Shown in pieces: positions 44,274-45,220 of a stretch of DNA of 64,000 nt (position 1 is its first letter; each line of letters opens with the position of its first letter). The DNA is taken from the sequence record PZ452583.1; one strand, given 5' to 3'. Below the pieces are notes generated by a model. That model did not search any database. It was not told the origin of the DNA and was given only the letters and a program-made list of their open reading frames with translations. Made by a program: the position numbers and the translations under genes. This DNA is from a phage.

Positions 44274-44349
44274 TGGTCGAGGCAGTAGGGATCGAACCTA
44301 CGACCTAGGACTTAGAAGGTCCTTGCTCTTCCTTCTGAGCTATGCCCCG
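44274..44349 (-). tRNA. tRNA-Arg (anticodon UCU)
   Basis: Hand-folded cloverleaf from reverse complement: T-arm GUAGG-UUCGAUC-CCUAC, anticodon loop CUUCUAA, encoded CCA. Confidence 0.8.
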
Positions 44350-44353
44350 TAAT

Positions 44354-44429
44354 TGGGGTGACCGATGGGAGTCGAACCCATGACTACGAGAATCACAATC
44401 TCGAGTTCTACCAACTGAACTACGGCCAC
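44354..44429 (-). tRNA. tRNA-His (anticodon GUG)
   Basis: Hand-folded: acceptor GUGGCCG/CGGUCAC, D-stem GUUC/GAAC, anticodon stem CGAGA/UCUCG with loop UUGUGAU, T-arm AUGGG-UUCGACU-CCCAU, discriminator C, CCA; no encoded G-1. Confidence 0.65.
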
Positions 44430-44543
44430 ATTAATATCTACTCCAACAATCATGATGTCTTCACACGAAATTAAGAGAAGAGTGATCAGTTAAACCCTTA
44501 TAATCGCGTCAAGTAGATATTAATGTGACAGTTGTCACAAATT

Positions 44544-44618
44544 TGGCGGACGTGATAGGATTCGAACCTATAACCAATCGCTTAACAGGCGATCGCTCTG
44601 CCATTGAGCTACACATCC
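44544..44618 (-). tRNA. tRNA-Asn (anticodon GUU)
   Basis: Hand-folded: acceptor GGAUGUG/CACGUCC, anticodon stem AUCGC/GCGAU with loop CUGUUAA, T-loop UUCGAAU, CCA. Confidence 0.7.
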
Positions 44619-44622
44619 AAAT

Positions 44623-44709
44623 TGGTGGGGAGTGGTGGAGTCGAACCACCCGAGTCGCAATGACAATGAATTTACAGTCCACACCGCTACCTCTACGGGA
44701 TAACTCCCC
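44623..44709 (-). tRNA. tRNA-Tyr (anticodon GUA), type II with long variable arm
   Basis: Hand-folded: acceptor GGGGAGU/ACUCCCC, anticodon loop CUGUAAA, variable arm hairpin, T-arm GGUGG-UUCGACU-CCACC, CCA; anticodon stem has two G-U pairs. Confidence 0.6.
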
Positions 44710-44721
44710 TAATTCATAATT

Positions 44722-44796
44722 TGGTGGCCCTGGGTGGAATTGAACCACCATCTGGCGATTATGAGTCGCTTGCTTGAACCTTCCAGCTACAGGGCC
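44722..44796 (-). tRNA. tRNA with CAU anticodon (Ile by analogy to T4 tRNA-Ile; Met by anticodon alone)
   Basis: Hand-folded: acceptor GGCCCUG/CAGGGCC, anticodon loop CUCAUAA, T-arm GGUGG-UUCAAUU-CCACC, CCA. Confidence 0.7.
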
Positions 44797-44797
44797 T

Positions 44798-44873
44798 TGG
44801 TGCTGATTGACGGAATCGAACCGCCGACCTTCTCATTACAAGTGAGTTGCTCTACCTACTGAGCTAAATCAGC
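44798..44873 (-). tRNA. tRNA-Thr (anticodon UGU)
   Basis: Hand-folded: acceptor GCUGAUU/AAUCAGC, D-stem GCUC/GAGC, anticodon loop CUUGUAA, T-loop UUCGAUU, CCA. Confidence 0.75.
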
Positions 44874-44878
44874 AAAAC

Positions 44879-44968
44879 TGGCGGAGGCGATAGGATTTGA
44901 ACCTATGAGTCGCCGGAGCGACTGCCGGTTTTCAAGACCGGTGCATTAAACCACTCTGCCACGCCTCC
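44879..44968 (-). tRNA. tRNA-Ser (anticodon UGA), type II
   Basis: Hand-folded: acceptor GGAGGCG/CGCCUCC, anticodon stem CCGGU/ACCGG with loop CUUGAAA, long variable arm, T-loop UUCAAAU, CCA. Confidence 0.75.
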
Positions 44969-44970
44969 AG

Positions 44971-45044
44971 TCTCCATACAAGGATTTGAACCTTGGACCT
45001 CCTGATCCCAAATCAGGCGCTCTACCAAACTGAGCTACACGGAG
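44971..45044 (-). tRNA. tRNA-Pro (anticodon UGG), CCA not encoded
   Basis: Hand-folded: anticodon stem CCUGA/UCAGG with loop UUUGGGA, T-arm CAAGG-UUCAAAU-CCUUG; 3' end abuts tRNA-Ser (Pro-Ser dimeric arrangement as in T4). Confidence 0.75.
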
Positions 45045-45054
45045 TAAATTAAAT

Positions 45055-45128
45055 TGGAGCGGATAATGAGAATCGAACTCACATCATCAGATTGGAAGTC
45101 TGAGGTAATACCATTATACGATATCCGC
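45055..45128 (-). tRNA. tRNA-Gly (anticodon UCC)
   Basis: Hand-folded: acceptor GCGGAUA/UAUCCGC, anticodon stem UCAGA/UCUGA with loop CUUCCAA, T-loop UUCGAUU, CCA. Confidence 0.75.
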
Positions 45129-45133
45129 AAATT

Positions 45134-45220
45134 TGGTGCGAGAAGTGGGACTCGAACCCACAAGGAAATCATTCCGCAGCATTTTAAGTGCTGTGCCTTT
45201 ACCAATTTGACCATTCTCGC
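45134..45220 (-). tRNA. tRNA-Leu (anticodon UAA), type II
   Basis: Hand-folded: acceptor GCGAGAA/UUCUCGC, anticodon stem CAGCA/UGCUG with loop CUUAAAA, long variable arm, T-arm GUGGG-UUCGAGU-CCCAC, CCA. Confidence 0.75.

Follow-up and report, generated by a model that had tools for sequence, protein, structure and literature searches.

A ten-gene tRNA array and its detection

The window, i.e. the whole 64-kb stretch of phage DNA that was analyzed, harbors exactly ten tRNA genes as identified by ARAGORN, all on the minus strand and within 44274-45220. Listed from the 5' end of that strand, these are:

45134-45220, minus strand: tRNA-Leu (UAA); ARAGORN, Rfam 59.3 bits; 100% identity to T4
45055-45128, minus strand: tRNA-Gly (UCC); ARAGORN, Rfam; 100% identity to T4
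44970-45044, minus strand: tRNA-Pro (UGG), without CCA; ARAGORN, Rfam; 100% identity to T4
44879-44968, minus strand: tRNA-Ser (UGA); ARAGORN, Rfam; 87-nt body the same as in T4
44798-44873, minus strand: tRNA-Thr (UGU); ARAGORN, Rfam; 96% identity to T4
44722-44796, minus strand: CAU tRNA, by sequence of the tRNA-Ile2 type; ARAGORN, Rfam; 100% identity to the RB3 allele, 63% to T4 tRNA-Ile
44623-44709, minus strand: tRNA-Tyr (GUA); ARAGORN; tRNAscan-SE score 39 in the ACG-C40 record
44544-44618, minus strand: tRNA-Asn (GUU); ARAGORN, Rfam 74.1 bits; 100% identity to RB3
44354-44429, minus strand: tRNA-His (GUG), with U at -1, C73 and an encoded CCA; ARAGORN, Rfam 65.1 bits
44274-44349, minus strand: tRNA-Arg (UCU), RB3/T2-type allele; ARAGORN, Rfam; 97% identity to RB3, 63% to T4

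A preliminary description of this DNA, made by hand-folding, had already listed ten minus-strand tRNAs, and both their order and their anticodons are borne out by ARAGORN and Rfam, with the Tyr, Asn and His folds accepted by ARAGORN under the same anticodons. ARAGORN, like many GenBank records, labels the CAU tRNA as Met. Nine of the ten genes match the Rfam tRNA model (RF00005) at 59-74 bits (threshold 29, E 1e-11 to 1e-15), and so show the above-threshold cloverleaf that, with a 7-nt anticodon loop, defines this family. The remaining one, tRNA-Tyr, is a class II tRNA whose long variable arm makes it score poorly, below the Rfam tRNA listing, and it counts as a tRNA by its ARAGORN and tRNAscan-SE calls and its identity to T6 tRNA-Tyr. 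A CCA end is encoded by all but tRNA-Pro, which is followed by CUG and lies 2 nt from tRNA-Ser; that Pro is without CCA and abuts Ser had been described. Two further absences described earlier also hold, namely that of a tRNA-Gln from the array and that of an encoded G-1 from tRNA-His (T at -1). Gaps between the genes are 1-12 nt, with the exception of 114 nt between Asn and His, on which the description was silent.

Among E. coli tRNAs, the best match of the CAU tRNA is the tRNA-Ile with a CAU anticodon (81.6% identity over the full length of 75 nt), and the anticodon arms of the two are identical (common stretch AGCGACTCATAATCGCCAG). Such a relative (ileX/ileY type), a common anticodon arm and an acceptor that begins with GGCCC are the marks of tRNA-Ile2. 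Judged by its sequence, the gene is of the tRNA-Ile2 type (AUA-reading, lysidine) and not a tRNA-Met, an assignment that also fits the fivefold enrichment of AUA codons in the phage.

Relation to known T4-like clusters

As reported, the array is nothing new; it is a common form of the tRNA cluster of T4-like coliphages and has been annotated before. In phage ACG-C40 (NC_019399; PMC3347319) these ten tRNAs have been on record since 2012, in the same order and together with the same HNH gene and 116-aa ORF (see below), and the window is 99.3% identical to this phage over 44200-45300. Many other Tequatrovirus records in GenBank, about 190, share this gene set. ACG-C40 does lack the insertions found in the window outside the array (43041-43560, 45955-46468 and 46746-47174). 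There are 189 phage records that each cover at least 80% of the region.

Compared with the T4 cluster (NC_000866, 70908-72530), the window has the same place between e.8 and trna.2, the same strand and the same order, and it has kept the CCA-less Pro abutting Ser, rnaD and rnaC, the upstream spacer and the terminator. The first six tRNAs had been said to follow T4. This stands for the order. Identity to the T4 counterparts is 100% for Leu, Gly, Pro and Ser and 96% for Thr, whereas the sixth, the CAU gene, is, like Arg, an allele only 63% identical to that of T4. The T4 gene map comprises only eight tRNAs (Gln, Leu, Gly, Pro, Ser, Thr, Ile and Arg), as anticipated without Tyr, Asn and His, so that T4 does not carry the same ten genes; relative to this set, Gln is missing from the window, and Tyr, Asn and His are extra. 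The window furthermore lacks segB, has a leader RNA ahead of His, encodes CCA at the 3' end of tRNA-Ser where T4 has TAA, and carries the inserted HNH gene and 116-aa ORF. As expected of a Tequatrovirus cluster, a single strand carries the core Leu-Gly-Pro-Ser-Thr-CAU...Arg between the e.8 side and trna.2, with rnaD and rnaC downstream of Arg, followed by a terminator, although the 116-aa ORF intervenes.

The Tyr-Asn extension was reported in 2008 for T2L, RB1 and RB3 (Brok-Volchanskaya et al.; PMC2330249; AJ884578). In these phages a segB-less CAU-Tyr-Asn-Arg is followed by rnaD and rnaC, as in the window, and identities between the window and RB3 are 100% for CAU and Asn, 98% for Tyr and 97% for Arg. 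Unlike the window, RB3 has Gln and is devoid of the leader and His module, the HNH gene and the 116-aa ORF. The site that SegB preferentially cleaves in T2L, RB1 and RB3 lies within the tRNA-Asn gene (PMC2330249). Another relative is T6, whose annotated and experimentally studied tRNA-Tyr is 100% identical to that of the window; its tRNA-Tyr/segB locus has segB past Tyr, and no Pro, Ser, Asn or His in the stretch examined.

Taken from the gene maps of T4, RB3, T6 and R5505, synteny blocks and per-tRNA identities, the locus is very probably the standard Tequatrovirus tRNA/stable-RNA unit in a common mosaic form, supplying decoders for A/U-rich codons. The Leu-Gly-Pro-Ser-Thr core is the part common to T4, while the T4 Ile-segB-Arg slot here has the segB-less T2/RB3-type alleles Ile2(CAU), Tyr, Asn and Arg. 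A module of ~190 bp with the leader and tRNA-His, found in other Tevenvirinae as well, is inserted between Asn and Arg, the predicted HNH homing-endonuclease gene has taken the place of tRNA-Gln, and the 116-aa ORF parts Arg from RNAs D and C. Exchange of the CAU-to-Arg segment is accounted for by SegB homing (PMC2330249).

Inserted genes

Two protein-coding genes flank the array:

45227-45835, minus strand: predicted free-standing HNH homing-endonuclease gene, 202 aa; phrog_14736, E=2e-123
43905-44255, minus strand: ORF of 116 aa between tRNA-Arg and rnaD; phrog_3355 (unknown function), E=1e-53

The preliminary description was right in placing an HNH gene close to tRNA-Leu and needs a small correction in that the 3' end of the gene (stop, 45227) is what lies 6 nt upstream of Leu. 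The stretch 45222-45841 substitutes for the T4 tRNA-Gln, with the HNH gene in the exact place of Gln. The same insertion is present in 64 phage records, and tRNA-Gln is found instead of it in the otherwise collinear R5505, T4, RB3 and T6. Its Pfam HNH match is weak (17.3 bits, under the cut-off of 21.4 bits), and by its sequence, as a predicted nuclease with a sporadic presence, it qualifies as a putative homing endonuclease. The ACG-C40 and R5505 records list the 116-aa ORF as a hypothetical protein. Neither this nor a 157-aa ORF matched any Pfam family, and in PHROGs both matched families of unknown function only.

Stable RNAs C and D and the proposed transcription unit

Four further non-coding features lie in the proposed unit:

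45849-45945, minus strand: upstream non-coding spacer; 96.9% identity to the T4 trna.2/tRNA-Gln spacer over 97 nt
43789-43905, minus strand: stable RNA D homologue (species 2), rnaD; 87.3% identity to T4 rnaD over 118 nt
43644-43782, minus strand: stable RNA C homologue (species 1), rnaC; 97.8% identity to T4 rnaC over 139 nt
43570-43593, minus strand: intrinsic terminator-like hairpin; 10-bp stem with 7 G-C pairs, then TTTTT

In T4, the species 1 and 2 RNAs are non-tRNA molecules of 100-140 nt that lie inside the tRNA precursor, are presumably freed by tRNA processing and have been assigned no function (PMC3014915). The preliminary description put them between the CAU tRNA and Arg of T4, i.e. 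in the interval occupied here by Tyr, Asn and His, and hoped to learn from these tRNAs what the stable RNAs derive from. This central idea rested on a mistaken T4 map: T4 has segB between Ile and Arg, and RNAs D and C downstream of Arg. When T4 rnaC and rnaD were aligned with the window (blastn), they matched only downstream of Arg and missed the Tyr-Asn-His interval. The window rnaD is alignable with T4 and RB3 rnaD and does not align with the Asn-His spacer. That the T4 RNAs are decayed descendants of Tyr, Asn and His is thus virtually out of the question, being already refuted by the presence of both gene sets in one genome, that of the window, and RB3 also carries Tyr, Asn, rnaD and rnaC jointly. 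Since the three tRNAs coexist with RNAs C and D, they are not replacements and give no information on the origin of C and D; the hoped-for clue is absent. Two features of rnaC would agree with decay from a tRNA, a T-arm-like hairpin at 43653-43669 (CCGGGTTCGAATCCCGG) and a tRNA-Sec-like match in Rfam that is very weak (16 bits, E=1.3), although no Rfam match for rnaC or rnaD was above chance. On account of these features, rnaC as such may have a tRNA-related origin.

The T4 homologue of the upstream spacer carries the middle promoter of the tRNA transcription unit (PMC2330249), and from this we infer a promoter at 45849-45945 in the window too. No strong sigma-70 site came up inside the array in a promoter scan, with a tool that does not cater for the middle and late promoters of T4. 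T4 transcription stops past the species I RNA (PMC2330249), and the hairpin at 43570-43593 is the likely end of the tRNA/stable-RNA transcription unit. By analogy with T4, this unit of ~2.4 kb (45945 to 43570) would be transcribed as a single precursor that reaches from the promoter ahead of the HNH gene to the terminator past rnaC. Host enzymes would process it, with RNase P generating the 5' ends and RNase E together with exonucleases the 3' ends, and tRNA-Pro would be completed by the CCA-adding enzyme; RNase III is also included in the T4 processing model (PMC2330249) and may take part.

Codon supply and a possible role in counter-defense

To see which codons the phage supplements, as the preliminary description had asked, we compared 64 long ORFs of the window (64 kb) with 35 E. 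coli K-12 genes (50 kb). The most phage-enriched codons were AGA (8.9x), AUA (5.0x), UCA (3.4x) and AAU (3.3x), followed by GGA and ACA (3.2x each), UUA (2.7x) and UAU (2.5x). All eight have a reader tRNA in the array, i.e. eight of the ten tRNAs read enriched codons. In this way the array would provide additional decoders for those A/U-rich codons that a phage of 35% G+C uses far more than its host. CAA is enriched as well (1.65x) although tRNA-Gln is missing, and the loss of this tRNA despite the enrichment shows that the phage can do without single tRNAs. Enrichment is absent for the His codons (CAU 1.06x, CAC 0.27x), and codon supply therefore does not account for tRNA-His.

The tRNAs probably double as spares when defense nucleases cut the tRNAs of the host, a role that we infer for all except tRNA-Tyr. 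For the latter there is a precedent in T6, which overcomes the Septu defense by amplifying its tRNA-Tyr gene (Chihara et al. 2026, PMC13096335); no such amplification was seen in the window, in contrast to the Septu escape of T6. That Tyr, Asn and His are mainly counter-defense spares rather than codon supplements appears rather unlikely to us, since codon supply already accounts for Asn and Tyr through the enrichment of AAU and UAU. Their anticodons do share G34-U35, which in E. coli marks the queuosine family cleaved by colicin E5, and PMC1635277 gives exactly tRNA-Tyr, His, Asn and Asp as the targets of this colicin. Moreover, Septu targets tRNA-Tyr, and the window tRNA-Tyr is the very one with which T6 counters it (PMC13096335), while retron Eco2 cleaves tRNA-His among others (PMC12916289). 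For His, in the absence of codon enrichment, some role beyond codon supply is indeed needed. No defense specific to tRNA-His or tRNA-Asn was, however, linked to these phages here. The anticodon loop of tRNA-His is the same as in E. coli, and we take this to be true of the Tyr and Asn loops as well, so that none of the three looks like a resistant variant.

A tRNA-His without encoded G-1

Alignment with E. coli hisR showed T instead of G in front of tRNA-His, with C73 kept. Out of the features of an E. coli-type tRNA-His, the gene thus has the GUG anticodon and C73, and lacks the encoded G-1 opposite C73, which is the main identity element for E. coli HisRS. T is found at -1 in the window, Roth77, Melville and PEi20. 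In an IMG/VR scan, G-1 was combined with C73 in 66 out of 76 viral tRNA-His genes, and all nine T-1 genes belonged to the T4-like lineage of the window.

An encoded G-1 is likewise lacking in the alpha-proteobacterial and phage tRNA-His described by Mukai et al. (2017, PMC5389517). Those tRNAs, however, carry A73 or U73, and the HisRS of their hosts is co-adapted to them, whereas the window tRNA has C73 and its phage infects E. coli, the hisR of which encodes G-1. In the literature searched, with most of the 1970s-1980s subscription-journal papers on T-even stable RNAs outside its scope, nothing relevant was found on G-1-less phage tRNA-His.

One explanation would be that this tRNA is poorly charged without G-1 and serves no translational purpose, as a decoy, a regulatory RNA or a decaying passenger. 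It is in line with the T at -1 in every lineage examined, the lack of His-codon enrichment and the absence of the gene from close relatives such as RB3. Nevertheless, we regard it as unlikely. From the phage lineages to E. coli, pairing in the cloverleaf is complete (100%), with 11 compensated pairs, and even distant phage genera do not vary in the anticodon loop, C73 or CCA, which argues for selection on a working tRNA and not for decay. Even a poor HisRS substrate may, besides, still get charged if abundant.

A candidate structured RNA upstream of tRNA-His

Most of the 114-nt gap between Asn and His is taken up by one feature:

44430-44526, minus strand: structured RNA spacer ("leader"), ~97 nt, unannotated; covariation, folding

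A 14-bp stem closes the leader, which contains a three-way junction and extends as far as position -1 of tRNA-His. Five to six nucleotides upstream of it (44524-44529, GUCACA) can pair with positions -1 to +5 of tRNA-His; in other Tevenvirinae, the preceding tRNA supplies these upstream bases with its GCCA end. The leader is present in 356 phage records. Its locus is bare of annotation in most of the 60 records listed, and in none of the records examined was it annotated as RNA. RNAalifold predicted 29 pairs, and in 13 distinct sequences 93.5% of cells were paired, with compensatory changes in 14 of the 29 pairs. None of 500 shuffles reached the observed covariation, slid controls gave 33-49%, and the folding z-score was -3.8. 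Conserved G-U pairs, which would be mismatches on the opposite strand, place the leader in the minus-strand sense. The covariance-model scores of 108.6 bits (minus) and 19.5 bits (plus) are not evidence of this, as a sequence model trivially fails on the reverse complement.

In T4-like phages the leader adjoins the G-1-less tRNA-His lineage and always precedes that tRNA, and in one Vequintavirinae phage the element also stands ahead of tRNA-Gln. Rfam 15 gave no match for it at E<=1 in 43500-46000, and the spacer alone gave only chance-level snoRNA matches at E<=10. Two IMG/VR pattern scans intended to widen the family recovered only 4-5 loci. One metagenome scan, with too degenerate a pattern, returned mostly chance matches, out of which the covariance model confirmed only L031, L032, L033, L041 and L079. 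Nothing relevant on an RNA upstream of tRNA-His in T4-like phages was found in the same body of literature. The closest analogy for the behavior of the leader is T4 rnaC/rnaD, from which it differs in having no sequence similarity, another position and another distribution among phages.

Several other identities were considered for the spacer. A homologue of rnaD was rejected for want of an alignment, TATAAGGG as a late promoter since it is not kept in a Klebsiella phage variant, and a hammerhead-like CUGAUCA...GAA since it is not kept in Melville or CW742. A 37-aa ORF (44340-44453) that starts in the spacer was also dismissed, as it crosses tRNA-His and the region shows stem covariation instead of codon-like conservation.

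The spacer might also be no functional RNA at all, and instead an internal promoter or a by-chance palindromic recombination scar. It does contain TTGACG, a perfect TGTGA-N6-TCACA palindrome lies just upstream, and spacer and tRNA-His move as a single block. An internal sigma-70 promoter was, however, rejected, as the spacer has no sigma-70-like site on the minus strand and TTGACG is not kept, being TCAACG in Roth77 and CTGACG in W70. Given also the compensatory stem changes, the conserved G-U pairs and the occurrence of the element ahead of tRNA-Gln in the Vequintavirinae phage, we hold a promoter or scar to be very unlikely.

Our tentative reading is that the leader may be a functional structured RNA, so far undescribed, which accompanies the atypical, G-1-less tRNA-His. 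Its closing stem and the 5-6 upstream nucleotides could extend over positions +1 to +5 of the tRNA into a helix of ~20 bp, by which the leader could determine in what way, at what time or through which nuclease tRNA-His acquires its 5' end. Alternatively, the leader might be set free as a third "stable RNA" having its own role, e.g. in counter-defense. We know of no small RNA of T4-type phages with a known function.

Implications

The mosaic structure of the unit fits the known reshuffling of this locus by homing endonucleases (SegB, HNH). A tRNA-His that keeps C73 without ever encoding G-1, in phages whose hosts have a HisRS that depends on G-1 and with no excess of His codons in the phage, makes one ask whether this tRNA is charged at all, and in what way. 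The leader is a conserved and easily deleted candidate beside a tRNA of unclear use, which makes it a tractable experimental target.

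tRNA genes of the array

With ARAGORN, exactly ten tRNA genes were found in the 64-kb window, all on the minus strand at 44274-45220, in the order Leu(UAA), Gly(UCC), Pro(UGG), Ser(UGA), Thr(UGU), CAU, Tyr(GUA), Asn(GUU), His(GUG), Arg(UCU). Nine scored 59-74 bits on the Rfam tRNA model (threshold 29). tRNA-Tyr, of class II with a long variable arm, scored poorly on this model; it is supported by the ARAGORN call, by a tRNAscan-SE call in a GenBank record nearly identical to the window and by its identity to the tRNA-Tyr of phage T6. The preliminary description, made from the sequence alone, had the coordinates, anticodons and order all right, as judged by ARAGORN and, for nine genes, Rfam; Tyr, Asn and His were called by ARAGORN with the same anticodons. 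The ten-tRNA observation is correct and well above chance. Intergenic gaps are 1-12 nt, with the sole exception of 114 nt between Asn and His, a gap absent from that description.

This array was known before. Over 44200-45300 the window shares 99.3% identity with Escherichia phage vB_EcoM_ACG-C40 (Tequatrovirus), which is annotated with the same ten tRNAs in identical order; there, an 'HNH endonuclease' gene borders the cluster at Leu and a hypothetical 116-aa gene borders it at Arg. The 2012 paper on this phage lists '10 tRNAs ... clustered between 68,043 and 68,989 bp' (PMC3347319). The same region matches 955 phage records, and since 189 of these span at least 80% of the query, the array is also widespread.

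One gene calls for a different label:

44722-44796, minus strand: CAU tRNA, labelled Met by ARAGORN and many GenBank records

This gene is best interpreted as a tRNA-Ile2 that reads AUA, as its T4 counterpart does: among E. coli genes it is closest to those for tRNA-Ile with a CAU anticodon (81.6% full-length identity, identical anticodon arm), and AUA is five times commoner in the phage ORFs than in the E. coli sample. Calling it Met is probably a routine annotation error. An encoded CCA is missing only from Pro, as had been noted for that tRNA, whereas T4 lacks it in Ser, Ile and Gln as well. The CCA of tRNA-Ser is encoded in the window (44879-44881) and in RB3, while TAA follows tRNA-Ser in T4.

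Mosaic structure of the locus

In transcription order, the genes annotated in T4 are Gln, Leu, Gly, Pro, Ser, Thr, Ile, segB, Arg, rnaD (species 2), rnaC (species 1), and those in RB3 are Gln, Leu, Gly, Pro, Ser, Thr, Met(CAU), Tyr, Asn, Arg, rnaD, rnaC. The segB-less form was reported for T2L, RB1 and RB3 by Brok-Volchanskaya et al. (2008) (PMC2330249); SegB, whose preferred cut lies inside the tRNA-Asn gene, causes the CAU-to-Arg segment to be replaced when infections are mixed (PMC2330249). In T6, segB follows Gln, Leu, Gly, Thr, CAU and Tyr, while phage R5505 carries Gln plus the ten tRNAs of the window, i.e. eleven. The T6 array (L138 1-973), without Pro and Ser and with segB directly after tRNA-Tyr, is a further mosaic form of the locus.

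Block-wise blastn and per-gene identities revealed that the window combines alleles of both types. Leu, Gly, Pro and Ser are 100% identical to T4 and Thr 96%, whereas the CAU and Arg tRNAs are RB3 alleles (100% and 97% to RB3, only 63% to T4), and Tyr and Asn are RB3 genes (98% and 100%). Relative to RB3, the Asn-His spacer and tRNA-His form an insertion of about 190 bp between Asn and Arg. The T4 tRNA-Gln is exactly replaced by 45222-45841, an HNH endonuclease gene according to PHROGs (E=2e-123), and this insertion is common to 64 phage records. The absence of tRNA-Gln and the T4 order of the first six tRNAs (Leu-Gly-Pro-Ser-Thr-Ile on the T4 map), both noticed earlier, are thereby borne out; T4 does not carry the same ten genes, as Gln is present and Tyr, Asn and His are absent from its map.

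The tRNA neighbourhood is also a hotspot of small accessory genes, with three insertions containing one hypothetical ORF each:

43041-43560: insertion with a 157-aa ORF (phrog_2280), absent from T4 and ACG-C40
45955-46468: insertion with a 171-aa ORF (phrog_2290), absent from T4 and ACG-C40
46746-47174: insertion with a 126-aa ORF (phrog_4301), absent from T4 and ACG-C40

Downstream of Arg, the following were identified:

43905-44255: hypothetical 116-aa ORF, between Arg and rnaD
43789-43905: rnaD homologue, 87% identity to T4
43644-43782: rnaC homologue, 97.8% identity to T4
43570-43593: terminator-like hairpin after rnaD and rnaC

The preliminary description had placed RNAs C and D of T4 in the CAU-Arg interval, and suggested that the array may reveal their origin. 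The placement was mistaken, as the T4 map has segB there and both RNAs downstream of Arg. The proposed origin is refuted: both RNAs coexist with Tyr, Asn and His in the window (and with Tyr and Asn in RB3), so these tRNAs are not their source. No similarity was found between the Asn-His spacer and rnaD. RNAs C and D have no role established in the literature (PMC3014915), and neither is represented in Rfam 15. Near its 3' end, at 43653-43669, the rnaC homologue has a canonical-looking T-arm, CCGGGTTCGAATCCCGG, and rnaC gives a very weak tRNA-Sec-like Rfam match (16 bits).

By analogy with T4, the locus would be transcribed as a single precursor of about 2.4 kb, from a promoter in the spacer 45849-45945 to the terminator at 43570-43593, with the HNH mRNA and the 116-aa ORF embedded in it like segB in T4. 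Host RNase P and other nucleases would then release the tRNAs, and CCA would be added to Pro.

Codon supply and counter-defence

Codon usage was compared between the phage (64 long window ORFs with 16,046 codons, 35% G+C) and E. coli K-12 (13,902 codons from 35 annotated genes). The most phage-enriched codons were AGA (8.9x), AUA (5.0x), UCA (3.4x), AAU (3.3x), GGA and ACA (3.2x each), followed by ACU, UUA (2.7x), CCU, UCU and UAU (2.5x). For eight of the ten tRNAs, a codon that they read directly is among these most enriched ones. The tRNAs added relative to T4 are:

44623-44709, minus strand: tRNA-Tyr (GUA)
44544-44618, minus strand: tRNA-Asn (GUU)
44354-44429, minus strand: tRNA-His (GUG)

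The classical codon-supply explanation of the T4 tRNAs extends to Asn and Tyr, but fails for His, whose codons are not enriched (CAU 1.06x, CAC 0.27x) and which is rarer overall in the phage. Single tRNAs are dispensable, since Gln was lost to the HNH gene with CAA at 1.65x in the phage ORFs.

A second, non-exclusive role of the array may be counter-defence. Septu cleaves tRNA-Tyr, and T6 escapes it when its tRNA-Tyr gene, to which that of the window is identical, is amplified (PMC13096335). Tyr, Asn and His are three of the four G34-U35 tRNAs, the queuosine family in E. coli; colicin E5 cleaves this anticodon group (PMC1635277).

tRNA-His and its structured leader

As described earlier, tRNA-His has no encoded G-1: T is found at -1 (44430) versus G in E. 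coli hisR, while C73 (44357) and CCA are kept. In an IMG/VR pattern scan, 66 of 76 viral tRNA-His had G-1 with C73, and all nine with T-1 fell within the T4-like lineage of the window. T-1 with C73 occurred in every T4-like phage tRNA-His gene examined. This is a maintained tRNA and not a pseudogene, as pairing in its cloverleaf is complete (100%) in four phage lineages and in E. coli, with compensation at 11 pairs.

The Asn-His gap is filled by a conserved structured RNA, with copies at other phage loci:

44430-44526, minus strand: structured RNA of about 97 nt in the window
Other copies: L004 1578-1674, L005 1580-1676, L011 406-501, L012 405-500, L013 394-489, L165 2438-2546, L177 5669-5766, L206 739-839

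The 114-nt spacer matches 356 phage records, in Tequatrovirus, Karamvirus, Klebsiella T4-like phages, Gelderlandvirus and two Vequintavirinae. No RNA annotation was present at the spacer among the 60 matching records listed; most had no annotation there, and the rest a hypothetical protein or an overlapping tRNA-Gln end. Rfam gave no match for it. In other Tevenvirinae, the element follows tRNA-Gln and precedes tRNA-His, as part of the conserved run Met-Gln-[element]-His-Ser-Trp. Its neighbours in phage W70 (Vequintavirinae) are tRNA-Gly and tRNA-Gln, and there it stands ahead of tRNA-Gln, not tRNA-His.

An RNAalifold consensus of six diverse copies (aligned with MAFFT) has a 14-bp closing stem and a three-way junction, with eight compensated pairs. 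In a covariance-model alignment of 13 distinct sequences, representing perhaps six to eight independent lineages and fitted to a model that favours the structure, 93.5% of cells were paired and both-sided changes occurred in 14 of 29 pairs. None of 500 shuffles reached these values, and sliding the structure by 1-3 columns left only 33-49% pairing. The single spacer sequence folds with a z-score of -3.8. Several invariant G-U pairs point to an RNA on the tRNA strand.

In T4-like phages, the closing stem ends on U-1 of tRNA-His. The 5-6 nt directly 5' of the stem (GUCACA in the window; in several other lineages, the GCCA with which the preceding tRNA ends) are predicted to pair with +1 to +5 of tRNA-His:

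44524-44529 against 44425-44430 (U-1 to C+5 of tRNA-His): GUCACA, mimicking the 3' acceptor strand, from folding only

The predicted extended helix of about 20 bp would span the RNase P site. When the leader was folded with the first 7 tRNA nucleotides, the helix extended into the tRNA in 12 of 12 lineages; the nearest-neighbour energy of the extended form in the window (-58.1 kcal/mol) is slightly better than that of leader plus cloverleaf (-54.4). As the 5' strand of the tRNA hardly varies, covariation lends this predicted extension no support, and it is no more than consistent with the data.

The segment 44524-44539 (minus strand), TGTGACAACTGTCACA, perfectly matches the CRP-site core TGTGA-N6-TCACA, and also forms a 6-bp hairpin immediately after tRNA-Asn. 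Among the copies, those of Tequatrovirus (window, L008) alone show the full palindrome; other lineages have just the TGTCACA half.

The leader might be freed as a discrete hairpin-closed RNA by an RNase P cut at +1 of tRNA-His, or might modulate that cut. The ten-tRNA finding as first stated adds nothing new; a side result of modest novelty, worth taking to experiment, is the tRNA-His without G-1 and the conserved structured leader in front of it.
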